In this document: one piece after another, positions 20,322-50,270 of the stretch
Numbering within the stretch: the first letter of the stretch is position 1
How the letters are laid out: each line of letters opens with the position of its first letter
IMG/VR virus record: IMGVR_UViG_3300035130_000222
Span: 1 to 50,270 of that record
Strand: one strand, 5' to 3'
DNA: 50,270 bases
DNA from: a virus
The notes under the pieces: model-generated
Database searches by the model: none
Seen by the model: the letters and a program-made list of their open reading frames with translations, nothing else
What the model was told of the DNA's origin: nothing
Program-made: the position numbers and the translations under genes

Positions 20322-20522
20322 ATGTATTATAAAGTACCACAGCAAATTGTAGCAAAATTATTTGCTTATTTTAAAGAAGAAAAAAATCTGCCTAATATTT
20401 CATGGAGTGAGATACAGATTATATGTTCTAATTTTTTACCTTTGGAAAATGTTGAACAAGATAATAAAAATGACAAAAAAGGTATTTCTAACGCAGAAAA
20501 AATGAAAAATGGCAAAAGTTGA
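20322..20522 (+). CDS. Hypothetical small protein at the start of the lysis cluster
   Basis: Strong SD AAAGGAG. Overlaps the amidase start. Confidence 0.45.
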   Translation: MYYKVPQQIVAKLFAYFKEEKNLPNISWSEIQIICSNFLPLENVEQDNKNDKKGISNAEKMKNGKS

Positions 20523-20967
20523 ACAAATAATTGTACATTGTTCTGATAGTAGATTTGGTAATTCTCAAACAATTAGAGAATGGCATATTGCAAGAGGTTG
20601 GCGAACGATAGGGTATCATTTTGTTATATTAAATGGACAGATAACACCTGATTTTTATTTAGAATCGTTAAACGGATCAATAGAATGTGGTCGTATTTTA
20701 GATGGTGATAATTATTTATATTCATCTGAAATTGGTGCGCACACATTAGGATATAATAAAACAAGCATTGGTATTTGTTTAATTGGTATTAAAATTTTTA
20801 GCAAAAATCAAATTAATTCTTTATATAAGTTGTGTTCTGAATTAAAAGATCATTTTAAAATTCCAATTGATAAAATTATCGGTCATTATGAGGCAGAAAC
20901 AGCAAATGGTAAAACGTGTCCGAATATTGATATTGCTGATTTTAGAAATAATTTAACAAATTATTAA
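20509..20967 (+). CDS. N-acetylmuramoyl-L-alanine amidase endolysin (Amidase_2 / T7-lysozyme-like)
   Basis: IIVHCSDS ... GYHFVI ... GAHTLGYNKTSIGICLIG ... IIGHYEA ... KTCPN, i.e. the His/His/Cys zinc triad arrangement of T7 lysozyme. Confidence 0.9.
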   Translation: MAKVEQIIVHCSDSRFGNSQTIREWHIARGWRTIGYHFVILNGQITPDFYLESLNGSIECGRILDGDNYLYSSEIGAHTLGYNKTSIGICLIGIKIFSKNQINSLYKLCSELKDHFKIPIDKIIGHYEAETANGKTCPNIDIADFRNNLTNY

Positions 20968-23452: not shown

Positions 23453-24085
23453 TTATATTACAGTTAACAAAACAGGTGTTGCCATCGAATAGTCAAAAAT
23501 AAATTGAATATTCATATATTTAATTTTATCTGACATTTCATCAGCATTTTTTTCTATTTTTTCTGTCTCAAGAGCTTTTTCAGCAATCCTTGCAAGCCAG
23601 CTATATAGCCCTTCATTATCAGATTCTCTAGTTTCTTTCCAGATTTTTTTTAATCGCAAAGATGCGCGATCGATCGCATGTTTACTTATATCAATTATCG
23701 GCATTGTTGCACCTCTCATTTTCAATTCAGCATCTGCATATTCTTTTTCTTCCGGAACCCTTGTTATTAAAATATTTTTATATTTTTTGCTATTTTGCAA
23801 CTTATAACCGTGAGTATTAATTTTATTTATATCTTTTTCGCTTTCTTTATTTTCTCTATTTTCTTTGCTTATTTCATTTTTTATGTTTTTTACGTTTTTT
23901 GCGTTTTTTGCGTTTTTTGCGTTTTGTGGACAAATAACATAATAACTTTTATATTCACCATTTATATTTTTATTGATAACAGTTTTTGTTTTATAATGTT
24001 CATTGTAAGCATAGCCACATCTTCCACATTTAATATTACCTGCTTTTTTATAATCATTAAATCTTAACCGTTCATATTTATCCAT
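23453..24085 (-). CDS. Hypothetical protein with N-terminal zinc-ribbon-like CxxC ... CP and an NAKNAKNAKNVKN repeat
   Basis: Start placed at the Met overlapping the csrA stop (AATGGATAA). The tracked ORF extends further upstream to 24172. A 9-nt tandem repeat lies in the DNA at about 23888-23925. Confidence 0.45.
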   Translation of the reverse strand: MDKYERLRFNDYKKAGNIKCGRCGYAYNEHYKTKTVINKNINGEYKSYYVICPQNAKNAKNAKNVKNIKNEISKENRENKESEKDINKINTHGYKLQNSKKYKNILITRVPEEKEYADAELKMRGATMPIIDISKHAIDRASLRLKKIWKETRESDNEGLYSWLARIAEKALETEKIEKNADEMSDKIKYMNIQFIFDYSMATPVLLTVI

Positions 24086-24323
24086 TCTGCTCGCCTTGAT
24101 TGTTCTGCTCATCATACTCATTCTGTTCATTTTGTTCATTAATTTGATCAAAAATTTCCTCACGATGAACACTTAAATTTTCATCTGCTGTTATTGAGAT
24201 TTTGACGCGTCTGCCTTTGATTGCTACAACTGTTATATCAATAAAATGATCGCCAATGATGATCTTTTCAAATTCTCGCCTAGTTAGCACCAAAGTTGTT
24301 TTTTTGTTTTGTTTAGTATTCAT
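24078..24323 (-). CDS. csrA: CsrA/RsmA-family RNA-binding translational regulator homologue
   Basis: LVLTRREFEKIIIGDHFIDITVVAIKGRRVKISITADENLSVHREEIF aligns along its whole length with the CsrA consensus (LILTRR.GE...IGD.I.ITVL...G..VR.GI.AP....VHREEI). Start set at the ATG with SD GGAG. Confidence 0.85.
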   Translation of the reverse strand: MNTKQNKKTTLVLTRREFEKIIIGDHFIDITVVAIKGRRVKISITADENLSVHREEIFDQINEQNEQNEYDEQNNQGEQNG

Positions 24324-27763: not shown

Positions 27764-27979
27764 TCAAGATATTTTTGCTTTTTTATTTTTATTGTTTTTA
27801 TTATTATAACTATTATTATCGCAAATATCTGCAATATAATATTTTAAAATAGGCATATCGCTAGGTGCATCTATACCAATTCTAATTTTATTTTTCGATA
27901 ATTCTAATAATGTTATTTTTATTTCACCATGTTTACCAATTAAAAAAACTTCTTTGGCTTTTTGTGTTTTAATTAGCAT
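27764..27979 (-). CDS. Divergent CsrA-like protein
   Basis: MLIKTQKAKEVFLIGKHGEIKITLLELSKNKIRIGIDAPSDMPILKYYI follows the CsrA beta-strand pattern, but the conserved HREEI is replaced by LKYYI. Confidence 0.65.
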   Translation of the reverse strand: MLIKTQKAKEVFLIGKHGEIKITLLELSKNKIRIGIDAPSDMPILKYYIADICDNNSYNNKNNKNKKAKIS

Positions 27980-30944: not shown

Positions 30945-31946
30945 ATGACAAATATGGCTAAAAAAAGATCAATAAAACCAGAATTTTGGGCGTCTGAACA
31001 AGTGATGAATTGTTCAAAAAATGCACGTTTATTATTCATTGGATTATGGAATTTTTGTGACGATAATGGAATACATCAGTACTCGTTTAGATGCATTAAA
31101 GCAAAAATTTTTCCAGCTGATTCTGATACTGAATCAGAAATTGAACAATTGCTGAATGAGCTTGAAAAAAACAATTTGATCAAAATATATACTGTTAATG
31201 ATAAAAAATATTTAAAAATTTCTGGCTGGCATCATCAAAGTATAGCACGTCCATTTTATAAATTTCCAGATGAAGACGGGAATAAGCCATTGAATAAATG
31301 GGAAAAAATCGAAAATATTCATGAGCAGTGCTCAAGCAGTGCACAAGCAGTGCCTGAGCAGTGCTCAAGCAGTGCACAAGCAGCGCCTGAGCAGTGCTCA
31401 AGCAGTGCACAAGCAGCGCCTGAGCAGTGCTCAAGCAGTGCACAAGCAGTGCCTGAGCAGTGCTCAAGCAGTGCACAAGCAGTGCCAAAGCACTGCGGTA
31501 ATGGTTATGGTTATAATACAGATCTAAGTTTTAAACATAACTCAAATGTAAATAATCAAGATAAAAATTTTAAAGAGAGTAAAAACGCGCGTGTACGCGC
31601 TTCTTTTACTGTTTTAAAAAACAACAGCGAATTTATTGCAAAATTTGATAAATTTTATGCTGTGTATCCTTTGCACAAATCAAAAGAGGGAGCGCTAAAA
31701 GCATTTGCTCAAATAAATCCTGACAATGATCTACTCGATAAAATTTTAATTGGAGTAGAAAATTATAAACAAGAAATTATTTTTATGAATATTGATAAAA
31801 AATATATTAAACATCCGTCGACATGGCTAAATCAAAAATGCTGGCTTGATGAAATTGATTTAACGCAACAACAATCACAACAAAAAAAATTAACTAATCA
31901 ACAACAGTTTGTTGCTAATTTAAAAAAAATAGCAGGAGAAAATTAA
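30945..31946 (+). CDS. Replication initiator / replisome organiser (lambda O-like role), containing tandem repeats
   Basis: N-terminal IKPEFWASEQVMNCSKNARLLFIGLWNFCDDNG and C-terminal FYAVYPLHKSKEGALKAF ... HPSTWLNQKCWLDE are patterns seen in phage replication-initiation proteins. An alternative start at 30954 has better SD spacing. Confidence 0.65.
   Translation: MTNMAKKRSIKPEFWASEQVMNCSKNARLLFIGLWNFCDDNGIHQYSFRCIKAKIFPADSDTESEIEQLLNELEKNNLIKIYTVNDKKYLKISGWHHQSIARPFYKFPDEDGNKPLNKWEKIENIHEQCSSSAQAVPEQCSSSAQAAPEQCSSSAQAAPEQCSSSAQAVPEQCSSSAQAVPKHCGNGYGYNTDLSFKHNSNVNNQDKNFKESKNARVRASFTVLKNNSEFIAKFDKFYAVYPLHKSKEGALKAFAQINPDNDLLDKILIGVENYKQEIIFMNIDKKYIKHPSTWLNQKCWLDEIDLTQQQSQQKKLTNQQQFVANLKKIAGEN
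31323..31487. repeat. Five tandem 33-bp repeats, i.e. 15 copies of AGCAGTGC at 11-bp phasing. Candidate origin iterons inside the initiator gene
   Basis: Read directly. GC-rich relative to its surroundings. Encodes EQCSSSAQA(V/A)P x5. Confidence 0.85.
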
Positions 31947-31949
31947 TTA

Positions 31950-32429
31950 ATGGAAAATTTAAAAAAACGTACATTAAAAATATTTGCAACGTTAACAGCA
32001 ATTTACGGAAGTGCATGGTGCAATCAATTTAGCGACGAAAGTATTTTAAATTTAGCAATAAAAATTTGGACTAGTGAATTAAAAAAATTTAACGACAACG
32101 AAATTAAATTTGCAATTAAAAAATGCATGCAACATGATTATCCACCAACTCTTCCAGTTTTTGCTAAAATGTGCAGCATCGAAAAATCAGATTTAAACTT
32201 AACAACTGCAGAAATATCATTTTTGACGCATGACAAAACGTATGCAGAAATTGTAAAAAAAATTGACAAGTGGAACTTTGTGCGTTTATCAGCAGATGCT
32301 GCGTTAAAAATCTACAAAATTTTATATCGCGATCACATTGATAAAAAAATAAACAAAATAAACGAAAATTTTACAGAAAAAATTGAATTTATTAAACAGC
32401 GCATATCTGATCAAAAAATGATTTTGTAA
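31950..32429 (+). CDS. Lambda P-like replication protein (helicase-loader candidate)
   Basis: The pattern IFATLTAIYGSAW ... IKIWTSELKKFNDNEIKFAIKKCMQHDYPPTLPVFAKMC parallels the lambda P N-terminal region (QLLATFPASL ... RRQWVLAF ... RPFLPSPGQFVAWC). Follows the O-like gene. Confidence 0.5.
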   Translation: MENLKKRTLKIFATLTAIYGSAWCNQFSDESILNLAIKIWTSELKKFNDNEIKFAIKKCMQHDYPPTLPVFAKMCSIEKSDLNLTTAEISFLTHDKTYAEIVKKIDKWNFVRLSADAALKIYKILYRDHIDKKINKINENFTEKIEFIKQRISDQKMIL

Positions 32430-32716: not shown

Positions 32717-32795
32717 TTGACAATATCAGTTAAGTTGATACAATGTAATTAAGCTCATAAATAATTATGAGCTGATTAAAAAAGGAGTACAAATC
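32717..32795 (+). promoter_or_regulatory. Early promoter cassette 1: TTGACA - 16 nt - TGaTACAAT, then a 22-bp palindrome AGCTCATAA-ATAA-TTATGAGCT at about +1, then SD AAGGAG
   Basis: Read directly. The same cassette recurs at 37207-37285 and, without the -35, at 38791-38861. Confidence 0.7.
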
Positions 32796-32975
32796 ATGAA
32801 AAAACTAACACAAGCAGAAATCGATGCGAAGTTAAAAAACGATGATAAAGATTGGCGAAAGTTGGATTTAAGTGGTGCTGATTTAAGTGGCGCTGATTTA
32901 AGAGAGGCTGATTTAAGAGAGGCTGATTTGTGGAATGCTGATTTAAGTGGTGTTAAAAAAGGAGATAACGCATGA
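32796..32975 (+). CDS. Pentapeptide-repeat protein 1 (59 aa; leader plus about 5 repeats plus tail). Not in the supplied ORF track
   Basis: The ATG follows the cassette SD. Translation: [63 protein letters not shown] overlap with the next gene. Confidence 0.75.
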   Translation: MKKLTQAEIDAKLKNDDKDWRKLDLSGADLSGADLREADLREADLWNADLSGVKKGDNA

Positions 32976-34051
32976 AAAAACTAACACAAGCAGAAATCGA
33001 TGCGAAGTTAAAAAACGATGATAAAGATTGGCGAAAGTTGGATTTAAGTGGTGCTGATTTAAAGGGAGCTGATTTAAAGGGAGCTGATTTAAGTGGCGCT
33101 AATTTAACTGGAATTGATTTAAGTGGCGCTAATTTAGTGTGCGCTAATTTAAGGGGAACTAATCTAAGAGAAGCTAATTTAAGAGAAGCTAATTTAAGAG
33201 GAGCTAATTTAATGCGCGCTGATTTAAGTGGCGCTGATTTAAGTGGCGCTGATTTAAGTGGCGCTAATTTAGTGTGCGCTAATTTAAGGGGGACTAATCT
33301 AAGAGAAGCTAATTTAAGAGGAGCTAATTTAATGCGCGCTGATTTAAGTGGCGCTGATTTAAGTGGCGCTGATTTAAGTGGAACTGATTTAAGAGAGGCT
33401 GATTTAAAGGAAGCTGATTTAAGTGGAACTGATTTAAGAGAGGCTGATTTAAAGGGGGCTGATTTAGAAGGCGCTGATTTAAGTAATGCTGATTTAAAGT
33501 GCGCTGATTTAAGTAATGCTGATTTAAAGTGCGCTGATTTAAGTAATGCTGATTTAAATGAAGCTGATTTAATGCGCGCTAATTTAAGCTGTGCTTATTT
33601 AAAGGGAGCTGATTTAAGTGGAACTGATTTAAGAGAGGCTGATTTAAGAGAGGCTGATTTAAGAGATGCTGATTTAAGAGATGCTTATTTAAGATGGGCT
33701 AATTTAAGTTGTGCTGATTTAAGTGGCGCTAATTTAAGTGGCGCTGATTTAAGAGATGCTGATTTAAGTGGCGCTGATTTAAAAGAGGCTAATTTATTTG
33801 GCGCTGATTTAAGGGAGGCTAATCTAAGAGAAGCTAATTTAAGTGAAGCTGATTTAAGGGGCGCTGAGTTAAGTTGGGCTAATTTAAGGGGCGCTGAGTT
33901 AAGTTGGGCTAATTTAAGGGGCGCTGTTTTAAGAAAGGCTTTTTTAAAAGGGGCTAATTTAAGTTGCGCTGATTTAAGAGAGGCTGATTTAAGAGATGCT
34001 GATTTGTGGAATGCTGATTTAAGTGGTGTTAAAAAAGGAGATAACGCATGA
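32972..34051 (+). CDS. Pentapeptide-repeat protein 2 (359 aa)
   Basis: Continuous A(D/N)L(S/R/K)x pentapeptides. Shared leader and tail. ATGA overlaps on both sides. Confidence 0.85.
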
Positions 34052-34482
34052 AAAAACTAACACAAGCAGAAATCGACGAAAAATTAAAAAACGATGATAA
34101 AGATTGGCGAAAGTTGGATTTAAGTGGTGCTGATTTAAGATGTGCTAATTTAAGTTGCGCTGATTTAAGATGTGCTGATTTAAGAGGAGCTAATTTAATG
34201 CGCGCTGATTTAAGTTGCGCTAATTTATTTGGCGCTGATTTAAGGGAGGCTAATCTAAGAGAAGCTAATTTAAGTGAAGCTGATTTAAGGGGCGCTGAGT
34301 TAAGTTGGGCTAATTTAAGGGGCGCTGAGTTAAGTTGGGCTAATTTAAGGGGCGCTGTTTTAAGAAAGGCTTTTTTAAAAGGGGCTAATTTAAGTTGCGC
34401 TGATTTAAGAGAGGCTGATTTAAGAGATGCTGATTTGTGGAATGCTGATTTAAGTGGTGTTAAAAAAGGAGATAACGCATGA
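34048..34482 (+). CDS. Pentapeptide-repeat protein 3 (144 aa)
   Basis: As above. The C-terminal 83 aa are identical to the end of protein 2. Confidence 0.85.
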
Positions 34483-34928
34483 AAAAACTAACACAAGCAG
34501 AAATCGACGAAAAATTAAAAAACGATGATAAAGATTGGCGAAAGTTGGATTTAAGTGGTGCTGATTTAAGATGTGCTAATTTAAGTTGCGCTGATTTAAG
34601 TGGTGCTGATTTAAGTGGTGCTGATTTAAGAGATGCTGATTTAAGAGATGCTGATTTAAATGGGGCTGATTTAGAAGGCGCTGATTTAAGGCGCGCTAAT
34701 TTAAGAGATGCTGATTTAAGAGAGGCTGATTTAAAGGGCACTGATTTAAAGAGCGCTAATTTAAGGGGGACTAATCTAAGAGAAGCTAATTTAAGTTGCG
34801 CTGATTTAAGAGAGGCTGATTTAAGCGGAGCTGATTTAAGAGAGGCTAATTTAAGCGGAGCTGATTTAAGAGAGGCTGATTTGTGGAATGCTGATTTAAG
34901 TGGTGTTAAAAAAGGAGATAACGCATGA
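34479..34928 (+). CDS. Pentapeptide-repeat protein 4 (149 aa)
   Basis: As above. Confidence 0.85.
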
Positions 34929-35509
34929 AAAAACTAACACAAGCAGAAATCGATGCGAAGCTAAAAAACAATGATAAAAACTGGCAAAAGTTGGATTTAA
35001 GTGGTGCTGATTTAAGAGGAGCTAATTTAATGCGCGCTGATTTAAGTGGCGCTAATTTAAGTGGCGCTGATTTAAGAGATGCTGATTTAAGAAAGGCTTA
35101 TTTAAGATGGGCTGATTTAAGCGGAGCTGATTTAAGCGGAGCTGATTTAAGAGATGCTGATTTAAGGCGCGCTGATTTAAGAGAGGCTGATTTAAAGGGC
35201 GCTGATTTAAAGGGCGCTGATTTAAGGAGCGCTGATTTAAAGTGCGCTAATTTAAGAGATGCTGATTTAAAGGGCACTGATTTAAGTGGCGCTAATTTAA
35301 GAGATGCTGATTTGAGAGAGGCTGATTTATATGGCGCTTATTTAAGATGGGCTAATTTAAGTTGCACTGATTTAAATGGCGCTGATTTAAGGAGCGCTGA
35401 TTTAAGAGATGCTTATTTAAAGGGCGCTGATTTAAGAGAGGCTGATTTAAGAGAGGCTGATTTGTGGAATGCTGATTTAAGTGGTGTTAAAAAAGGAGAT
35501 AACGCATGA
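34925..35509 (+). CDS. Pentapeptide-repeat protein 5 (194 aa)
   Basis: As above. The leader variant is NNDKNWQKLD. Confidence 0.85.
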   Translation: MKKLTQAEIDAKLKNNDKNWQKLDLSGADLRGANLMRADLSGANLSGADLRDADLRKAYLRWADLSGADLSGADLRDADLRRADLREADLKGADLKGADLRSADLKCANLRDADLKGTDLSGANLRDADLREADLYGAYLRWANLSCTDLNGADLRSADLRDAYLKGADLREADLREADLWNADLSGVKKGDNA

Positions 35510-35994
35510 AAAAACTAACACAAGCAGAAATCGACGAAAAATTAAAAAACGATGATAAAGATTGGCGAAAGTTGGATTTAAGTGGTGCTGATTTAAGATG
35601 TGCTAATTTAAGTTGCGCTGATTTAAGAGAGGCTGATTTAAAGGAAGCTGATTTAAAATGGGCTAATTTAAGTTGTGCTAATTTAAGTTGCGCTGTTTTA
35701 AGGGAGGCTTTTTTAAAAGGGGCTAATTTAAGTGGAACTGATTTAAGAGAGGCTGATTTAAGAGAGGCTGATTTATGGGGAGCTAATTTGGAATTCGCAA
35801 ATTTAAGGCGCGCTAATTTAAGAGATGCTGATTTAAGCGGAGCTGATTTAAGCGGGGCTAATTTAAGCGGAGCTGATTTAAGAGAGGCTGATTTAAGATG
35901 TGCTGATTTAAGCGGAGCTGATTTAAGAGAGGCTAATTTAAGCGGAGCTGATTTAAGAGAGGCTGATTTAAGTGGTGCTAATTTAACTGAATAG
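35506..35994 (+). CDS. Pentapeptide-repeat protein 6 (162 aa), lacking the shared C-terminal tail
   Basis: As above. Ends in ANLTE, followed by a normal SD for 36014. Confidence 0.85.
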   Translation: MKKLTQAEIDEKLKNDDKDWRKLDLSGADLRCANLSCADLREADLKEADLKWANLSCANLSCAVLREAFLKGANLSGTDLREADLREADLWGANLEFANLRRANLRDADLSGADLSGANLSGADLREADLRCADLSGADLREANLSGADLREADLSGANLTE

Positions 35995-36013: not shown

Positions 36014-36220
36014 ATGAGTAAAACAAAAGTTGATAATGTTTACATATTGACATCTGATGGAATCACAGTAGAAAAATTTCACATCAGAGATTTAGAAAAA
36101 GCAAAACAAAAAGCTGAATATTTAACAAAGATCCATGATGATGGATATAAATATACAATTAAAATAATTAATGAGTATGTTGATGATCGCGGATTTGGTT
36201 ATAAACGCTTAGCTAAATAA
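36014..36220 (+). CDS. Hypothetical small protein
   Basis: SD AGAGGAG. Same operon as the pentapeptide array. Confidence 0.55.
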   Translation: MSKTKVDNVYILTSDGITVEKFHIRDLEKAKQKAEYLTKIHDDGYKYTIKIINEYVDDRGFGYKRLAK

Positions 36221-36234
36221 AGGAGTGAAAAAAG

Positions 36235-36477
36235 ATGATAAATGAAATAATTATTGATGCGCAACAAATAGCTGATGATTTTATTTTATTGTTAGATAAA
36301 AAACAAAAAGTAGATCTAATGAAAGGAATATTACCTGCTGCTAGATTGCACGGATATTTAAAAGCAATTAAAAGAAGATGTGGGTTAGAAAATTTATGTA
36401 AACAGGCACAAGATATTTTTGAAAAAGATATTATTGTTGCAATTTTAAATGAGGGAAATTTTTATGAATGCAATTAA
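36235..36477 (+). CDS. Hypothetical small protein; a disrupted paralogue lies at 39455-39704
   Basis: SD AAGGAG. Similar to the second copy (IIIDAQQIADDFILLLDKKQKVDLMKG vs IIMDATQIAQNFIQLLDKNQKIELMRG). Confidence 0.55.
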   Translation: MINEIIIDAQQIADDFILLLDKKQKVDLMKGILPAARLHGYLKAIKRRCGLENLCKQAQDIFEKDIIVAILNEGNFYECN

Positions 36478-36565
36478 AATTAAAAATAACGAAAAACAAA
36501 ATAAAATATCTTTGTCTATTGAAGAAAAAGATAAAAAACTTATTAATGTAGAATGTGATTTTTAA
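36464..36565 (+). CDS. Possible 33-aa ORF
   Basis: ATG preceded by GAGGGA at good spacing. Otherwise unsupported. Confidence 0.25.
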   Translation: MNAIKIKNNEKQNKISLSIEEKDKKLINVECDF

Positions 36566-36593
36566 ATTAACTTAGTTAAGAGAGGTAATAACT

Positions 36594-36950
36594 ATGAATG
36601 ATAATTTTGAACAGTTCGAACGTATAGCATTTAGTCATATAAAAAAAATACATGAGTCGAATGTAAATTTAGATAATATTTTGAAAAAAATTAAGCAATT
36701 AATTGATGAACGCAAACAAATTGATTTTTTTGATGATAATATAGAATCATATTGCGATATATTAAACAATTCGAAAAAAATTTTGTTAATTGTTTTTGGT
36801 AATAATGATTTGTTATTGCAACATTATGCGATCAGAGAATGGGCTATTAGATATATCAGAGAATCTGTAGAAGAAAAAATGACAGAAGAAAAAATTATTA
36901 CTATTACGGATAGAATTATTAAATATTTAGAAAGAACATATGAGTTATGA
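36594..36950 (+). CDS. Hypothetical protein
   Basis: SD AGAGAGG. Operon context. Confidence 0.5.
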   Translation: MNDNFEQFERIAFSHIKKIHESNVNLDNILKKIKQLIDERKQIDFFDDNIESYCDILNNSKKILLIVFGNNDLLLQHYAIREWAIRYIRESVEEKMTEEKIITITDRIIKYLERTYEL

Positions 36951-37147
36951 ATATAAATGATGATATAGAAGAAATGATTAACATAATCAAGTGGAGATTT
37001 GATGCTTATGTTACTGATTATTTTACATCAATAACATGTTTATATAATAAAAATAAAATACCAAAAAAAAGGTACGAGTGGCTGATTAAAAAACGGCCGC
37101 ATGAACTATTTGATGAATTATTTAATAAGTATTATTCTGATAATTAA
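36947..37147 (+). CDS. Hypothetical small protein
   Basis: ATGA overlap with the upstream gene. Confidence 0.5.
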   Translation: MNINDDIEEMINIIKWRFDAYVTDYFTSITCLYNKNKIPKKRYEWLIKKRPHELFDELFNKYYSDN

Positions 37148-37206: not shown

Positions 37207-37285
37207 TTGACAATATCGTCTAAGCTGATATACTGTAATTAAGCTCATAAATAATTATGAGCTGATTAAAAAAGGAGTATAAATT
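37207..37285 (+). promoter_or_regulatory. Early promoter cassette 2: TTGACA - 16 nt - TGaTATACT, the same 22-bp palindrome, SD AAGGAG
   Basis: Read directly. Near-identical to cassette 1 and identical to cassette 3 from ATCGTCTAAG onward. Confidence 0.7.
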
Positions 37286-37531
37286 ATGATTCAAATACCA
37301 TTATGGTTATCATTTTTTATAACAATAATAGGGATTACATCAATTATATGTTGCTGTATAGGGATTATATTTTTGATGCATAGGTGCGCTAAAAATAGTT
37401 TACTTGCAAAAAAGATTGATATGATCACTTTAATCACATCATCTTTTTTAAGTATTGTAATGATCATTATTATAATGATCTGGCTAGCGTTGATTTTATT
37501 ATATGGTCATGCGCTGAATTTTTTAATTTAA
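37286..37531 (+). CDS. Small multi-TM membrane protein
   Basis: Hydrophobic helices throughout. First gene after cassette 2. Confidence 0.6.
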   Translation: MIQIPLWLSFFITIIGITSIICCCIGIIFLMHRCAKNSLLAKKIDMITLITSSFLSIVMIIIIMIWLALILLYGHALNFLI

Positions 37532-37805: not shown

Positions 37806-37946
37806 ATGAAACGACGACAAAATGAAACATATAATGAATATAAAAAAAGAAGAAAAAGAGAACAAGAATATATAATAGAGCATTTGAAAGGTAAGCTGTT
37901 TTATGATTCGTCAAATGACAAACATTATAAAAAAAATAAGAAATAA
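37806..37946 (+). CDS. Possible 46-aa highly basic protein. Not in the ORF track
   Basis: ATG preceded by GAAGGT. Translation: MKRRQNETYNEYKKRRKREQEYIIEHLKGKLFYDSSNDKHYKKNKK. Confidence 0.35.
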   Translation: MKRRQNETYNEYKKRRKREQEYIIEHLKGKLFYDSSNDKHYKKNKK

Positions 37947-37980
37947 TCTTTTTTTAATTAAAAATATGGAGGTTATTATT

Positions 37981-38289
37981 ATGAACATGGGTGTTGAAAT
38001 TAAAGAAAAACGAATTGCAAAAAATATATCAAAGCGCAGATTAGCACAAATTGCAGGAATTAGCAGCACATGGATTGATAAAATAGAAAACGGGTATGAA
38101 CCAAAAAAGCAAAAACATGTTATTTTTGCAAAAATTTTACGTGCATTTGATAAAATTGATGATATGTATTATGAAAAAAGTGCAAGACAAAGATTGATTT
38201 ATGAAGATAAATTAAGCAATAGATTAACTATTATATTAAAAATGATGGATGATAATTATAATAGAGCTAAAATGAGAGATGTATTTTGA
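37981..38289 (+). CDS. XRE-family helix-turn-helix regulator
   Basis: IKEKRIAKNISKRRLAQIAGISSTWIDKIENG is a classic XRE HTH. Start reassigned to the ATG after SD GGAGG. Confidence 0.7.
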   Translation: MNMGVEIKEKRIAKNISKRRLAQIAGISSTWIDKIENGYEPKKQKHVIFAKILRAFDKIDDMYYEKSARQRLIYEDKLSNRLTIILKMMDDNYNRAKMRDVF

Positions 38290-38395
38290 TATGAAAGACA
38301 ATGAAAAATATGATAATTATAATCTTGATCAAAAATTATTGCATGATAAATGAACTATTTTCTGATATGTATGATTAACATAGGTGATAGATGAA

Positions 38396-38626
38396 ATGAA
38401 AATAACGTCTGAAAAAATAAAACAATTGCGACAAAAACTTAAATTAAAACAAAAAGAATTTGCAAATTTGATAGGTATAACGTGGCAATATTTGTCTGCG
38501 CTAGAAAATAATAAAAAAAGCATCTCTCATAGAGTTGCAATTTTTGTACATTTACTTGATACTCTTGATTTAAATGCAGAAACAGCAAGACATTTTTATA
38601 AGAGATCATGCTTACATAAAAAATAG
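38396..38626 (+). CDS. XRE-family helix-turn-helix regulator
   Basis: IKQLRQKLKLKQKEFANLIGITWQYLSALENNKKSIS is a classic XRE HTH. Confidence 0.7.
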   Translation: MKITSEKIKQLRQKLKLKQKEFANLIGITWQYLSALENNKKSISHRVAIFVHLLDTLDLNAETARHFYKRSCLHKK

Positions 38627-38790: not shown

Positions 38791-38861
38791 ATCGTCTAAG
38801 CTGATATACTGTAATTAAGCTCATAAATAATTATGAGCTGATTAAAAAAGGAGTATAAATT
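38791..38861 (+). promoter_or_regulatory. Early promoter cassette 3: extended -10 TGaTATACT, the same palindrome and SD; the -35 is degenerate
   Basis: About 70 nt are identical to cassette 2. The TTGACA is replaced by ATCAAC. Confidence 0.55.
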
Positions 38862-39035
38862 ATGAAGTATATAACACAACATGCAGACAAAGAAACTGCG
38901 CTAGCTGCTGTAAAACAAGATGGGTGGGCACTCCAATTTGCGAGCGGCGAGCTAAAAAATGATAAAGATTTTTTCTTTGATTTAATAAATTTTGTTAAAA
39001 CATATAGCATTGAAAAGGAAATTAAAAATGACTAA
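38862..39035 (+). CDS. Small DUF4116-type repeat protein (57 aa). Not in the ORF track
   Basis: The ATG follows the cassette SD. TQHADKETALAAVKQDGWALQFASGELKNDKDF matches the AVKQ(D/N)G.AL.(Y/F)AS..L..D repeat of DUF4116. Confidence 0.6.
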   Translation: MKYITQHADKETALAAVKQDGWALQFASGELKNDKDFFFDLINFVKTYSIEKEIKND

Positions 39036-39465
39036 ACGACTTACTTTAAAAGATTTTAAACATATTAAAATAGATATTTATGATTTTGATCTCTATATCT
39101 TATTTAATAAAAATTGGAAAAATTTATTTGCTAATTTTCTCGAAGAAAATCATAATTATTATTTAGATATAGATAAATGTGGATATGCACTAACAACTTT
39201 TATTAAGGATATTCATAGAATATATTTAATTTTTAATGAAAATCCAAACGCGAATTCAGTGATACATGAAAGCATTCATGCTGCTCTTTATATTATTTAT
39301 CAACTTGACATTAATCTTGATAAAAATAATCAAGAACCATTCGCATATTTAGCTTCTTTCATTGCAACGAAAATTTGTGAAATTTCTTTTAATATTCATA
39401 ATAATAAATCTTTTTTTACAAAAGTTCTTTCAAACTTAAAAACAGGAGACAAGAATGATGACTAA
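39028..39465 (+). CDS. Putative HExxH metallopeptidase-like protein, paralogue of 29199-29600
   Basis: HESIH ... QEPFAYL. Start moved to the ATG with SD AAGGA that overlaps the upstream stop. The tracked ORF begins at a TTG at 38992. Confidence 0.5.
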   Translation: MTKRLTLKDFKHIKIDIYDFDLYILFNKNWKNLFANFLEENHNYYLDIDKCGYALTTFIKDIHRIYLIFNENPNANSVIHESIHAALYIIYQLDINLDKNNQEPFAYLASFIATKICEISFNIHNNKSFFTKVLSNLKTGDKNDD

Positions 39466-39704
39466 TCATATAATTATGGATGCAACACAAATAGCGCAAA
39501 ATTTTATACAGCTATTAGATAAAAATCAAAAAATTGAATTAATGCGTGGAACTATTCTATGAGGAAAATTCAACGGATATATAAAATTTTTAAAAAGAAA
39601 ATATAGATTTGATAATATGCATAAATATTCTCAAGATTTTTTTGAAAAAGAAATTATTATAGCAATTTTAATAGAGAGTAGTTTTTTAACGGAGGAATTA
39701 AATC
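39455..39704 (+). pseudogene. Disrupted paralogue of 36235-36477 with an in-frame TGA at 39560-39562
   Basis: MMTNHIIMDATQIAQNFIQLLDKNQKIELMRGTIL*GKFNGYIKFLKRKYRFDNMHKYSQDFFEKEIIIAILIESSF aligns with the 80-aa protein across the stop. The 3' limit is approximate. Confidence 0.5.
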
Positions 39705-39980
39705 ATGAAAAAACTAACGCAAGCAGAAATCGAAGAAAAATTGAAAAATGATGACAAAGATTGGCGAATTCTGGATTTAAGCGGTACTGAAACACAACAT
39801 GCAGACAAAGAAATCGCGCTAGCTGCTGTAAAACAAGATGGTTTAATGCTTAGATATGCAAGCGCTGAATTACGAGCAGATAAAGAAGTTGTGCTAGCTG
39901 CTGTAAAACAAAATGGTTTAGCACTTAGATATGCAAGCGATGATTTGCAAAAAATAGTAAAAGATGAGTATAATTTATGA
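39705..39980 (+). CDS. Chimeric protein: the pentapeptide-array leader fused to two DUF4116-type repeats
   Basis: [27 protein letters not shown], then TQHADKEIALAAVKQDGLMLRYASAELRADKEVVLAAVKQNGLALRYASDDL. Confidence 0.75.
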   Translation: MKKLTQAEIEEKLKNDDKDWRILDLSGTETQHADKEIALAAVKQDGLMLRYASAELRADKEVVLAAVKQNGLALRYASDDLQKIVKDEYNL

Positions 39981-41312: not shown

Positions 41313-41819
41313 TTAAGAAATAATTACACCAATAACAATAAAAATAATCATTAATACAACAATAATCGCACAACCTGATCCAATTAAGCCAAATCCTGTT
41401 TTTAACATATTTTTTCTAAATTTTTTAAAGCAACTTTCTTTTTTTTGAACTAAATAAGAATTTTGACAAAGATAACTGTTGAGCAAATAATATACATTTG
41501 TTTTAAAATTATCTATATCTGCTTTTTTTGCTAGATTAAAAATATATAATTCGATTTGTTTATCATTGTTAAAATAATGTACTAAAGATAAACTATCAAA
41601 AGGCTCGTTTTTTGCCAAAAAATATTTAATTCCCGCAAAAATCGCGCGATTTATTTTTGTTGAAAAATGATATATGTCAATCGGTAATACACCATGTTTG
41701 CGTAAATAATTAGTAAATTCATCACGAATTTCAAAAAGCAATGAATTATCTGTTAATAATGATCCGAGAACTGATTGTTCAATATCCACATCCACAATAT
41801 TATAAATAGTCATAGTCAT
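41313..41819 (-). CDS. DnaB-helicase N-terminal-domain-only protein with a C-terminal transmembrane anchor
   Basis: VDIEQSVLGSLLTDN ... FSTKINRAIFAGIKYFLAKNEPFDSLSLVHYF parallels E. coli DnaB IEAEQSVLGGLMLDN ... FYTRPHRHIFTEMARLQESGSPIDLITLAESL. No ATPase motifs. The C-terminus GLIGSGCAIIVVLMIIFIVIGVIIS is a TM helix. Confidence 0.65.
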   Translation of the reverse strand: MTMTIYNIVDVDIEQSVLGSLLTDNSLLFEIRDEFTNYLRKHGVLPIDIYHFSTKINRAIFAGIKYFLAKNEPFDSLSLVHYFNNDKQIELYIFNLAKKADIDNFKTNVYYLLNSYLCQNSYLVQKKESCFKKFRKNMLKTGFGLIGSGCAIIVVLMIIFIVIGVIIS

Positions 41820-42433: not shown

Positions 42434-43597
42434 GTGAAATTTGTTGAATATTCATCTATTAAAAATATCAATGATAGTAAATTTATTGATAAAATTTATA
42501 ATCAATGCTATGGTGATAATTTATATATTGTTTTAGAAAAAGCGCATGGCGCTAATTTTGCAATTTATTTTGACGGTAAGCAATTCAGATGCGCGTCAAG
42601 AGATAGATTTCTTAATTTTATATTAAATTTAGATGATGAAAACATTTTACAACTAGATGAGTTTAATCGAGTTTGTGAAAATTCTGAAGGTTTTTTTGGA
42701 TATAAATATATTTTATATTTTATCTTGCCTAGAATTGTAGAGTATTATAAATTTTTAAAAAATTTTGAAAAAATAGATCAGCTTATTATTTATGGAGAAT
42801 TAATAGGAGCAAATTATCAGCACGATGATTTTAAAATTATAAATAAAAAATATAATCTGAGAAAAGTTCAAAAAGGTGTATTTTATTCTCCAGTTCCAAC
42901 TTTTTATATTTTTGATATAAAAATCAATAATAAATATTTAGGATATTATAAGTTTGAGAATGTTTGCGCTAGATTTTTTTCAAAAAAATTTAAAATTAAT
43001 GATAATGATAATGAGTGTCAAAAAATATTTAAAAAATATAGTATTTGTTATGCATATAAATTATTTAGCGGATCATTGAAAGATTGCATCAAGTTTAATA
43101 ATGAATATGAATCATCAATACCTAGCATTCTTGGATTGCCAAAAATTGATAATAATATATGCGAAGGTAATATTATTAAGCCTGTTAATGATCTATATTT
43201 AGCATGTGGATCTAGAATTATATTAAAAAATAAAAATATTAAATTTGCTGAAAAACAAAAAGAGAAAAAAAATAGTATAAGAATAGAAGATATATCAGAA
43301 CAAGCTCAAAATTTATTAGATATATTATTAACATATGTTAATATGAATAGATTAAATAATGTGATATCGCATATTGGAGAAGTTACAATTAATGATTTTG
43401 GTAATTTGATGAAAGAATTAAATAAAGATATTTTAGATGATTTTTATTATTATTGTGCTGAGAATAATTTTGATTATCTTACAAAAGATGAACAAAAATT
43501 TTTACGCAAAGAATTAAATAGAAATTGTGCAAATTTAATAAAAGAATATTTTACGAGTAATAAACAATTAATTTTAAAACAAAGACAGCAGAAGTGA
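42434..43597 (+). CDS. Rnl2-family ATP-dependent RNA ligase, GTG start
   Basis: Nucleotidyltransferase motifs in order: I LEKAHGANF, III IIYGELIGANY, IV CEGNIIKP, V RIILKNKNIKF. The lysine position (about aa 36) is like T4 Rnl2. Confidence 0.75.
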   Translation: MKFVEYSSIKNINDSKFIDKIYNQCYGDNLYIVLEKAHGANFAIYFDGKQFRCASRDRFLNFILNLDDENILQLDEFNRVCENSEGFFGYKYILYFILPRIVEYYKFLKNFEKIDQLIIYGELIGANYQHDDFKIINKKYNLRKVQKGVFYSPVPTFYIFDIKINNKYLGYYKFENVCARFFSKKFKINDNDNECQKIFKKYSICYAYKLFSGSLKDCIKFNNEYESSIPSILGLPKIDNNICEGNIIKPVNDLYLACGSRIILKNKNIKFAEKQKEKKNSIRIEDISEQAQNLLDILLTYVNMNRLNNVISHIGEVTINDFGNLMKELNKDILDDFYYYCAENNFDYLTKDEQKFLRKELNRNCANLIKEYFTSNKQLILKQRQQK

Positions 43598-43603
43598 TGA
43601 AAT

Positions 43604-44878
43604 ATGCGAATAGAACAAGTTGACATAAAAAAAATAAAACCATATGAGAATAATCCAAGAATCAATAAAAAATCTATTGATAAGGTTGCTAATAGTTTAT
43701 TAGCATATGGTTGGAGACAACCAATCGTTGTTGATAAGAATATGATTATTGTTGCTGGTCATACAAGATTTTCTGCTGCAAGGCAATTAAAATTAAATAA
43801 AGTGCCTGTGCATATCGCAGATAATCTTAATGAGCAACAGATAAAAGCATACAGATTGGCTGATAATAGATCTGCTGATGACTCAGAATGGAATTTTGAT
43901 GCATTAAAAATAGAGCTAGAATCTTTGATTGATTTTGATCCACAAGTTGATTTAGCTATTACAACATGTTTTGATCAAAGCGAAATAAATTCTATTATGG
44001 AAGATGATAAATTAAAAACTGATCTAGATAAAAATGATGAGATTTTATTTGAAAATAATAGTTTTGATCTTGATAAAATTGTAACTAAAGAAGGTATGGT
44101 TTGGGTGTTGGATAAACATAAAATAATTTGTGGTGATTCAACTAAAAAAGAAACATTTACTAAATTATTTAATAACTCAAAAAATGATAATATAGATAAA
44201 GCAGATATGATATTTACTGATCCTCCATATAATGTTGATTATGAAGGGCATAAAAAAATAAGAGATAAAATATCTAATGATAAAATGACAGATGATAATT
44301 TCTTTTGTTTTTTAAAAAATGTTTTTGATAATATATATAATTTTATAAAAGATGATGCATCATTATATATTTGTTATTCAACTTCTGAAACATCAAATTT
44401 TTTAAAAGCATTAGATAACAATAAATTTAATATTATAAATATTATTATATGGGCTAAAAATCATTTTGTTATAAGTTTTGGTAGGTATAATAGACAATAT
44501 GAGCCTATTATTTATGCTTATAAGAAAAATAAAACAGATAAATGGTATGGTGATAATACACAATGTGATTTATGGAATTTTAATGTTTATAAAAGTTCTA
44601 GTTTACATCCAACGATGAAACCAGTTGCTTTAATAAAAAAATCGTTAATCAATAGTAGTAAAAATAATAATGTTATTTTAGATCCATTTTTAGGTAGCGG
44701 ATCAACATTAATTGCATGTGAAGATATGAGTCGTATATGCTATGGAATTGAATTAGAACCTAAATATGTAGATACTGTTATTCAAAGATGGCAATTTTTA
44801 ACAAAAAAAGATGCTATGTTAGAAAATGGTCGATCATATAATCAATTAAAGGATATGTTGAAAAATGACAAGCGGTGA
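43604..44878 (+). CDS. ParB-like nuclease domain fused to a beta-class N6-adenine/N4-cytosine DNA methyltransferase
   Basis: N-terminal IKPYENNPR ... VAGHTRFSAARQL (ParB-N), then TDPPYN (motif IV) before DPFLGSGST (motif I). Confidence 0.8.
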   Translation: MRIEQVDIKKIKPYENNPRINKKSIDKVANSLLAYGWRQPIVVDKNMIIVAGHTRFSAARQLKLNKVPVHIADNLNEQQIKAYRLADNRSADDSEWNFDALKIELESLIDFDPQVDLAITTCFDQSEINSIMEDDKLKTDLDKNDEILFENNSFDLDKIVTKEGMVWVLDKHKIICGDSTKKETFTKLFNNSKNDNIDKADMIFTDPPYNVDYEGHKKIRDKISNDKMTDDNFFCFLKNVFDNIYNFIKDDASLYICYSTSETSNFLKALDNNKFNIINIIIWAKNHFVISFGRYNRQYEPIIYAYKKNKTDKWYGDNTQCDLWNFNVYKSSSLHPTMKPVALIKKSLINSSKNNNVILDPFLGSGSTLIACEDMSRICYGIELEPKYVDTVIQRWQFLTKKDAMLENGRSYNQLKDMLKNDKR

Positions 44879-50082: not shown

Positions 50083-50270
50083 CATTATTTTCACGATAAT
50101 CTTTCCTTGTTTTAACGAGAGGTCAAAAAGCTTACTATGTAATCGTATATTGACCTCTCAACAACTTTAATTTTTTCATTATTTTCACGATAATCTTTCC
50201 TTGTTTTAACGAGAGGTCAAAAAGCTTACTATGTAATCGTATATTGACCTCTCAACAACTTTAATTTTTT
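50083..50270. repeat. Two full copies of the 94-bp tandem repeat (50083-50176 and 50177-50270)
   Basis: Read directly. Continuous with the copies at 1-135 if the contig is circularised. Confidence 0.9.

Follow-up and report, generated by a model that had tools for sequence, protein, structure and literature searches.

An operon-like array of six overlapping pentapeptide-repeat genes with a common leader in a tailed-phage genome

The stretch of DNA analysed here, referred to as the window, is the IMG/VR virus record IMGVR_UViG_3300035130_000222 at its full length of 50,270 nt, and it represents a complete tailed-phage genome. At positions 32796-35994, on the + strand, it carries a polycistronic, operon-like array of six paralogous genes encoding pentapeptide-repeat proteins (PRPs) of 59, 359, 144, 149, 194 and 162 aa, with an ATGA stop/start overlap at each joint (n = 5). 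These six open reading frames (ORFs 1-6) had been described, with their coordinates and lengths, in an earlier note made from the sequence alone, and all of them were confirmed. The absence of ORF1 from the ORF track used for that note is accounted for by its length, which at 59 aa is under the usual threshold of 60 aa; NCBI does annotate it, and the NCBI annotation of the same contig comprises six coding sequences between the flanking genes. PRP genes in phages are already known, and uncharacterised; what is new here is a set of six overlapping, probably coupled PRP paralogues with a common leader. Their most likely function, which we put forward as speculation and with less than even confidence, is that of cytoplasmic decoys binding host DNA-binding proteins through mimicry of duplex DNA.

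All six ORFs begin with the nearly common N-terminal leader that had been pointed out from the sequence; it spans about 23-27 aa and is identical or near-identical throughout, with ORF5 differing at three residues. ORFs 1-5 share one 17-aa C-terminal tail, which includes the motif KKGDNA. The 28-nt junction between tail and leader, AAAGGAGATAACGCATGAAAAAACTAAC, occurs exactly five times versus 0 expected by chance, and every junction places a Shine-Dalgarno (SD) motif, AAGGAG, 7 nt before the ATG of the ATGA overlap (5 out of 5). The tail codons therefore do carry the SD and the start of the next gene, as proposed beforehand. Stop/start overlaps with an SD located in the upstream ORF are those of a translationally coupled operon, and coupling is predicted for the array on this basis. 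A fusion protein made by programmed frameshifting was considered and rejected: between the A-run and the next ATG, TAA stops are found in the -1 frame and a TAA stop in the +1 frame, which indicates separate protein products. The description of the products as a set of graded lengths was somewhat generous, as the unit count is 6 in a single stub, 66 in the longest protein and 23-33 in the other four. In total, the array occupies 3.2 kb of the 50.1-kb packaged genome (6%).

Profile searches placed the six products among the pentapeptide-repeat proteins, in agreement with the earlier note, the Pfam Pentapeptide family PF00805 matching all six ORFs with E-values ranging from 4e-12 to 2e-143. For ORFs 1-5, Pfam gave no family beyond the pentapeptide families, and ORF6 yielded two weak, sub-threshold additional matches. 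Tandem Repeats Finder reported a period of 15 nt with 193.5 copies at 33041-35986. Across the six ORFs, 179 pentapeptide units were counted in register (about 170-180 had been estimated), with no indel and no internal stop. The centre of the unit was Leu in 179 of the 179 units, and position i-2 was Ala in 163 of them and Thr, Val or Ile in the others, so that the inward-facing central Leu/Phe and the i-2 Ala expected of PRPs are both present. At least eight contiguous A(D/N)LXX repeats, also expected of PRPs, were found in ORFs 2-6 (23-66 units); ORF1 has only 6.

The beta-helix fold expected of such proteins was predicted confidently by AlphaFold for the two paralogues modelled, ORF2 and ORF4. 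The ORF4 model (pLDDT 95.4; pTM 0.87) was characterized by a helix at residues 6-14, a strand every 5 residues and a disordered KKGDNA tail; the ORF2 model (pLDDT 90.2) formed one continuous helix of about 16.5 coils, with a slight dip in confidence at residues 68-71. According to these models, both proteins are bare, acidic, right-handed quadrilateral beta-helix rods with an N-terminal capping helix. The quadrilateral beta-helix has a rise of about 4.8 Å per coil, and by unit count the five longer proteins would be roughly 30-80 Å long. When the ORF4 model was compared with known structures using Foldseek, the best match in the PDB was the Np275/Np276 fusion 2j8k (TM score 0.83, root-mean-square deviation 0.5 Å, 46% identity), followed by designed beta1 solenoids and HetL and, more weakly, by Qnr, MfpA, AlbG and EfsQnr; NleL was also matched. 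All six proteins are acidic, with an isoelectric point of 4.5-5.3 and a net charge of -2 to -21. Their leader is hydrophilic, which argues against export through a signal peptide, and all six are without a signal peptide and without any other domain. A PADLOC search with ORF2, ORF4 and ORF6 gave no defence-system match.

The codons of the repeat scaffold were close to invariant: Asp was encoded by GAT in 115 cases out of 115, Asn by AAT in 49 out of 49, Ala by GCT in 162 out of 163 and Leu by TTA in 167 out of 179. For comparison, Ala was encoded by GCA (53%) or GCT (37%) in eleven large structural genes of this phage, where GAC made up 15% of Asp codons and 41% of Leu codons were other than TTA. 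Variation between units was almost wholly confined to nucleotides 7-12, which correspond to two surface codons, and the 9-nt core GCTGATTTA was conserved at the nucleotide level, synonymous sites included. Single-codon cores were also found in other phage PRP genes, with different codons, and we therefore regard the core as a signature of turnover and not as a selected DNA motif. In general, to judge from these sequences, invariant core codons indicate fast turnover of units through slippage and unequal recombination. The array contains 65 unit types at the DNA level and 46 at the peptide level, as compared with 7-17 in other phage PRP genes. A change by a single unit has been documented in phages L and ST64T, whose PRP genes differ by one 15-bp unit (bioRxiv 10.1101/2020.10.05.325894). 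At a larger scale, an exact 382-bp duplication with a period of 431 bp (33788-34169 = 34219-34600) gave rise to ORF3. The array may thus have arisen, and may still be changing, by unequal recombination or slippage among the 15-nt units and among copies of a tail-plus-leader module of about 130 nt; such recombination would hold the scaffold codons identical and leave variation to two surface residues per unit. A diversity-generating retroelement was considered as another source of variation and rejected, as no reverse transcriptase was detected in Pfam and PHROGs scans of most of the large ORFs of the window, including the neighbours of the array.

The completeness of the genome and the reliability of the array were examined together. 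The first 127 nt of the window are identical to the last 127 nt (1-127 versus 50144-50270), forming a terminal direct repeat, and the window is therefore a complete, circularly assembled genome of about 50.1 kb. An overlap of 127 bp probably reflects the assembly of a circular contig from short reads at k = 127. The repeat has an internal periodicity of 94 nt, its opening 20 nt being found again at 95, 50144 and 50238, which is consistent with a k = 127 circular-assembly overlap landing in a short tandem repeat. Coverage of this phage by short-read Logan contigs breaks off at 32773 and resumes at 35943, i.e., on either side of the array. ORFs 1-3 are present without change in a second, 99.9%-identical JGI contig, which ends at 34540, within the array. 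At k = 127, the sole non-unique stretches of the genome are 33788-34170, 34219-34600 and 35456-35628, corresponding to the 382-bp duplication (second and third junctions, J2 and J3) and to 173 bp at the fifth junction (J5). The 127-mers across the first and fourth junctions (J1 and J4) were all unique, as were 77 of the 124 across J5, and reads must therefore join tail to leader in at least four contexts. Moreover, a 49-nt unique segment in the 431-bp loop implies that ORF3 is present at least once. The protein set can be considered robust; the copy number of ORF3 (at least one) and the order of the genes are not certain.

The statement that no array of this kind was known in a phage held against all the collections searched, with no comparable array in INPHARED, IMG/VR, GTDB, the JGI contigs or the protein collections. 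A megablast search of 12 kb against INPHARED returned nothing, the junction pattern was absent from IMG/VR, and alignment of the leader found no relative in IMG/VR, GTDB genomes or JGI metagenome contigs. ORFs 2-6 were not in the protein collection by exact look-up, and an exhaustive HMMER search with ORF1 retrieved 59,111 generic PRPs, all matching the repeat part only, with no relative of the leader. No relatives were found for the flanking 159-aa gene, nor any close relative of the terminase in GTDB genomes. A literature search with the identifiers of the samples retrieved no paper that mentions them. The closest terminase relatives (at most 46% identity) keep the methyltransferase-terminase-portal synteny, and no PRP gene was found in the 10 kb upstream of their terminase, a region of small accessory genes.

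As to whether the array is a common phage module, the answer differs for its parts: PRP genes are not rare in phages, being detected by tblastn in 488 of 50,697 phage records (~1%), whereas the six-gene array and its leader were unmatched. The phage records inspected had one PRP gene, or two that were separate or adjacent, often in early or replication regions, and other phage PRPs have N-terminal caps similar to the leader of the array. About 30 clusters of viral PRP structures are present in BFVD, the PRP families in PHROGs (including phrog_31265, 7713, 923 and 15350) are all labelled 'unknown function', and about 1.4% of Pfam PRP sequences are viral (PMC8145042). The gene 'pentapeptide2' of Rheinheimera phage barba_12-7J (1318-2295) encodes an NTGNR/NTGNW repeat of about 35 units, and is no A(D/N)LXX PRP despite its annotation.

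Upstream of ORF1, a near-consensus sigma-70-type promoter had been proposed. The match alone is at chance level for so AT-rich a genome, as 8 matches of at least 11/12 were found genome-wide versus 5.3 ± 2.1 in simulated sequences. Its credibility is raised by the repetition of the whole cassette formed by the promoter and the 5' untranslated region (UTR): the 45-nt UTR cassette occurs in three exact copies on the + strand versus 0 expected. At the predicted transcript start, it contains a perfect 9+4+9 palindrome, AGCTCATAA-ATAA-TTATGAGCT, whose RNA hairpin folds at -13.3 kcal/mol (z = -3.2), the SD and the AUG staying unpaired; no Rfam family was matched. This hairpin could be an operator for one of the two helix-turn-helix (HTH) proteins encoded nearby, or a stabiliser of the 5' end of the mRNA. 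From their sequence and arrangement, the three cassettes look like a small regulon of accessory operons. Four small ORFs located 3' of the array are probably part of the same transcription unit, because the next promoter cassette begins only at 37207. The early expression suggested beforehand would follow from the position of the array 3' of the replication genes.

A seventh leader-bearing ORF, absent from the earlier note, was identified further downstream. In this ORF7, a leader 86% identical to those of the PRPs is fused to DUF4116 repeats, which themselves share 96% identity with a portion of the 57-aa ORF that follows cassette copy 3. Comparison of the leaders of ORF3 and ORF7 revealed 6 synonymous and 4 non-synonymous differences (pN/pS 0.15; Fisher p = 0.0017), a ratio that points to purifying selection or constraint on the leader peptide. 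ORF7 looks like a recent chimera, and the constraint may therefore stem mainly from the PRP context. An 80-aa gene located 3' of the array (36235-36477) has a degraded, 71%-identical paralogue at 39437-39722, directly 5' of ORF7, which is split into the ORFs 39455-39562 and 39617-39751. The accessory region thus has a mosaic make-up, with modules used more than once.

The identification of the element as a phage, made in the earlier note, was borne out by its packaging and structural genes, which encode a prohead protease, major capsid protein, tail sheath, tape measure, large terminase and portal. The GC content of the genome ranges from 21 to 37% (2-kb windows). A leftward operon encodes RecT, a YqaJ exonuclease, an SMC-like ATPase and two CsrA proteins; a rightward operon, which encodes a replication initiator and a P-like helicase loader, ends at 32429, just 5' of the array. 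Within the initiator gene, five 33-nt tandem repeats (31322-31486) encode PEQCSSSAQAV; they resemble iterons and may mark an origin within the initiator gene, as in lambda O. Four copies of this repeat, versus five in the window, are present in the second JGI contig. The RNA ligase and the orphan ParB-methyltransferase encoded next to the terminase genes are candidates for counter-defence functions; the order methyltransferase-TerS-TerL-portal is kept in the relatives L019 and L021.

In the NCBI deposit, the contig is part of a metagenome-assembled genome of a 'Candidatus Pacearchaeota archaeon' (proteins MGD9276285-MGD9276311, locus tags PVJ67_038xx-039xx). An archaeal virus was considered and rejected, since the genome has strong SD sites and sigma-70-type promoters and encodes CsrA and a murein amidase, the Amidase_2 endolysin. 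Phages of Gram-negative bacteria also gave the best matches to the endolysin, capsid and terminase. Together, these features identify the host as a bacterium, of a low-GC, Gram-negative type, and the Pacearchaeota label is probably the result of a binning error or contamination. Coordinates are given in Table 1.

Table 1. Position of the array and of other features in the window.
Feature	Position	Strand	Description
ORF1	32796-32975	+	59 aa; leader, 6 units, KKGDNA tail; PF00805 4.2e-12; NCBI MGD9276286.1
ORF2	32972-34051	+	359 aa; leader, 66 units, tail; ~16.5 coils; net charge -21; PF00805 1.9e-143
ORF3	34048-34482	+	144 aa; 23 units; from a 431-bp tandem duplication across a junction
ORF4	34479-34928	+	149 aa; 24 units
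ORF5	34925-35509	+	194 aa; 33 units; variant leader (N16, N19, Q21)
ORF6	35506-35994	+	162 aa; ~28 units; ends ...ANLTE, without RBS (ribosome-binding site)-bearing tail
Four small ORFs	36014-37147	+	68, 80, 118 and 66 aa; without family match
Sigma-70-type promoter	32717-32744	+	TTGACA, 16-nt spacer, TACAAT, TG extended -10; 11/12 matches
5'-UTR cassette copy 1	32745-32789	+	45 nt; palindrome 32752-32773; SD AAGGAG 32782-32787
Cassette copy 2 with promoter	37207-37279 (promoter 37207-37234, UTR 37235-37279)	+	TTGACA-16-TATACT with TG; precedes ORF at 37286
Cassette copy 3	38811-38855	+	Damaged -35 region; precedes 57-aa DUF4116 ORF 38862-39035
Two HTH genes	37903-38289; 38384-38626		Between cassette copies 2 and 3
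ORF7	39705-39980	+	91 aa; PRP leader fused at 39790/39791 to DUF4116 repeats; PF13475 5e-21
Amidase_2 endolysin	20509-20967		
Two CsrA-family RNA-binding regulators	24078-24323; 27764-27979	-	Leftward operon
Replication initiator gene	30945-31946		Rightward operon
168-aa ORF	41313-41819	-	Matches only DnaB helicase N-terminal domain; accessory region otherwise rightward
Rnl2-type RNA ligase; ParB_N-N6 DNA methyltransferase (orphan)	42434-43597; 43604-44878		Directly 5' of terminase genes

To our knowledge, DNA mimicry towards type II topoisomerases is the only established cytoplasmic mechanism for the PRP fold. This, together with the acidity of the proteins, the neighbourhood of replication genes and the cost of 3.2 kb, is why a role as decoys was ranked likeliest. 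In the mechanism that we propose, the sigma-70 promoter with its 5' hairpin would drive the operon, the same cassette heading two neighbouring accessory operons, and ribosomes would terminate at each ATGA overlap and reinitiate on the next gene, using an SD supplied by the KKGDNA tail of the preceding gene. In the cytoplasm of the infected cell, the rods would then bind host proteins such as a type II topoisomerase, or a nuclease that targets DNA in defence or repair, as mimics of duplex DNA, and several paralogues with different surfaces would provide a higher dosage and a wider target range. MfpA and Qnr are PRPs that bind gyrase in this manner, as DNA mimics (PMC10886550, PMC8145042).

A number of results weigh against this decoy function. 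The link with Qnr, MfpA and AlbG drawn in the earlier note held at the level of the fold and failed at that of family scores, dimerisation helix and loops. The best NCBIfam scores were 141.9 for Qnr, versus a cut-off of 240, and 121.8 for MfpA, versus 360; the Qnr subfamily models scored far under their cut-offs of 425-500. The HetL, PipB and PipB2 models were all under their cut-offs as well, with PipB/PipB2 and HetL ranking above Qnr and MfpA, and the sole cut-off exceeded was that of the short Alr5209 model, only through the summing of repeated partial matches. PRPs acting on gyrase have a C-terminal helix for head-to-head dimerisation, to which Qnr adds two loops (PMC8145042, PMC10886550). 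Neither a C-terminal dimerisation helix nor Qnr-type loops were present in the ORF2 and ORF4 models, and loops A and B are absent from all six ORFs, in which the 5-residue register is unbroken. On these grounds, the array proteins are generic PRPs, for which membership of the Qnr or MfpA families is not supported and an MfpA-like action is possible.

Other points against it concern the individual proteins and the background literature. ORF3 is only weakly acidic (net charge -2) and several coils are net positive; ORF1, the minimal unit with 1.5 coils, is probably too short to fold alone. The best structural match, Np275/Np276, is without known function, most PRPs have unknown or non-DNA functions (PMC8145042), and our literature search found no functional study of a phage PRP. 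That a DUF4116 protein also starts with the leader suggests that this peptide may do more than form a cap. The phage itself is known from what is essentially a single population and from a single short-read assembly. The absence of the dimerisation helix is one reason why our confidence in the putative decoy function stays below even.

Among the other explanations, the one closest to the decoy function keeps the rods as binding proteins and changes their target: they would be scaffolds or traps for proteins, acting as host-takeover factors in the manner of the PRP domains of PipB2, NleL/SopA and HetL. The matches of the fold to NleL and HetL, the ranking of the PipB/PipB2 and HetL models above Qnr and MfpA (all below cut-off) and the missing dimerisation helix are all in favour of such a role, as is the concentration of variation on two surface codons, yielding 46 peptide unit types; PRP arrays are, moreover, used as recognition surfaces by bacterial NLR-like sensors. 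The acidic charge and the replication-gene neighbourhood, however, suit a DNA role at least equally; we consider protein trapping unlikely, though well worth keeping in view. A more sceptical explanation, which we find less probable still, holds that repeat recombination ran away and left most of the array as a by-product: a single functional PRP gene would have been duplicated and fragmented, and several of the copies (ORF1 certainly, ORF3 perhaps) would contribute little or nothing. It draws on the youth of the repeats, whose core codons are identical in DNA, on the origin of ORF3 in an exact 382-bp duplication, on the 6 units of ORF1, on the chimeric ORF7 and the degraded paralogue of the 80-aa gene in the same region, and on the closest terminase relatives, in which the 10 kb preceding the terminase contain no PRP gene. 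Mere by-products would nevertheless not be expected to retain 179 of 179 units in frame with no internal stop or indel, an intact SD, start codon and leader in every copy, and a leader under purifying selection, at a cost of 3.2 kb in a packaged genome.

The leader lends itself to further readings. It is very unlikely, in our opinion, that it serves as a targeting signal, instead of or besides a cap, e.g., for loading into the capsid and co-injection like the internal proteins of T4. The same leader is found on seven ORFs belonging to two unrelated repeat families, with a pN/pS of 0.15, the phage has a prohead protease, and T-even internal proteins are a precedent for proteins sharing only a capsid-targeting sequence (PMC3012670); on the other hand, in the AlphaFold models the helix of the leader lies against the first coil like any N-terminal cap, similar caps exist in other phage PRPs, the genes lie in the early/accessory region behind sigma-70 promoters and not among the head genes, and ORF7 looks like a recent chimera, so that the selection may come from the PRP context. 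A broader version, to which we would assign only a slightly better chance, regards the locus as an 'accordion' of counter-defence decoys, in which recombination-prone cassettes would keep generating new DNA-mimic or protein-trap rods, and the conserved leader would act as an address tag (e.g., for capsid loading and co-injection) movable onto ORF7-like proteins. That the array is an assembly artefact, in which strain variants or collapsed repeats were chained together, deserves about as little credence as the targeting signal: the 127-bp overlap does suggest that short reads were assembled at k = 127, contigs of other assemblies end at the array or within it, and the exact repeats of 382 and 173 bp exceed k, but the 127-mers of J1 and J4 (all unique) and of J5 (77 out of 124) establish at least four tail-leader contexts, the 49-nt segment demands that ORF3 be present at least once, ORFs 1-3 are found again in an independent JGI contig, and a mis-join within identical junctions would reorder the genes and leave the proteins unchanged. 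Finally, it is extremely improbable that the 15-nt repeat functions as an element of the DNA itself, e.g., as an array of protein-binding sites or a structural feature, and that the ORFs are incidental. The conservation of the 9-nt core at synonymous sites and the existence of long ORFs on the minus strand would fit such an element; strong Pfam matches in the + frame only, the regular placement of starts, SD sites and stops, and the single-codon cores with different codons in unrelated phage PRP genes do not.

PRP genes occur in about 1% of sequenced phages, where they usually lie with the early genes; of the examples found, the array is the most elaborate. As 6% of a size-limited genome is spent on it, we argue that the proteins are useful to the phage. 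If they are DNA mimics or protein traps, they would form a new class of phage counter-defence or host-takeover proteins, and would illustrate the building of a protein set of this kind through repeat recombination and translational coupling. For experiments, the array also supplies naturally occurring variants of one scaffold that differ in length and surface, and the regularity of its repeats (Leu in 179 of 179 units, no loops) may interest designers of beta-solenoids, the designed 'beta1' solenoids being among its closest PDB matches.

PRP genes of cultured phages are the nearest viral counterparts of the array. They include orf232 of the P22-like phages L/ST64T, CKA15_017 of a P100-like Listeria phage, gp016 of Caulobacter phage RW, and genes of E. 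coli phage vB_EcoP_P64441, of the Rheinheimera Barba phages and of Microcystis phage MaMV-DC (the ORF31L/32L pair). These genes have in common with the array the repeat family, the fold and codon-homogeneous units that change by 15 bp; unlike the array, they consist of one or at most two genes with ordinary intergenic spacers, and none has six coupled genes, a common leader or an RBS-encoding tail. The Rheinheimera and Caulobacter RW proteins have, in addition, a globular C-terminal domain of about 70 aa that is absent from the array proteins. Outside viruses, the closest structural relatives are the cyanobacterial proteins Np275/Np276 of Nostoc punctiforme (2j8k, 2j8i), which share with the viral array proteins an N-terminal alpha-helical cap and an uninterrupted helix of type II turns. 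They are encoded by adjacent ORFs thought to derive from one gene (PMC8145042). That split, however, looks like a simple interruption, as the intergenic DNA goes on encoding repeats in frame, whereas each gene of the array has its own leader/cap, SD and ATGA. Qnr, MfpA, AlbG and EfsQnr, which protect topoisomerases and are the only PRPs for which DNA mimicry is established, share the right-handed quadrilateral beta-helix (Rfr) fold, an acidic surface and a cytoplasmic location with the array proteins, and have 13-33% identity to the ORF4 model in structural alignments.

For the multiplication of the genes, T4 provides a parallel: its counter-defence gene tifA was amplified in tandem by recombination despite the cost to packaging, a case of segmental amplification of viral counter-defence genes (PMC9391042; see also PMC13096335). 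The tifA copies were identical and arose under laboratory selection, whereas those of the array have diverged in length and surface and are predicted to be translationally coupled. The internal proteins of T-even phages, diverse proteins of which at least one is an injected anti-restriction factor, resemble the array in being joined by a common N-terminal sequence (PMC3012670), but the T4 leader has no sequence similarity to that of the array, which is predicted to be a structural cap. The folds of Ocr and ArdA are unrelated to that of the array proteins; both are acidic, elongated early decoys of DNA-binding enzymes (PMC7261183, PMC2731889), the role proposed here for the array.

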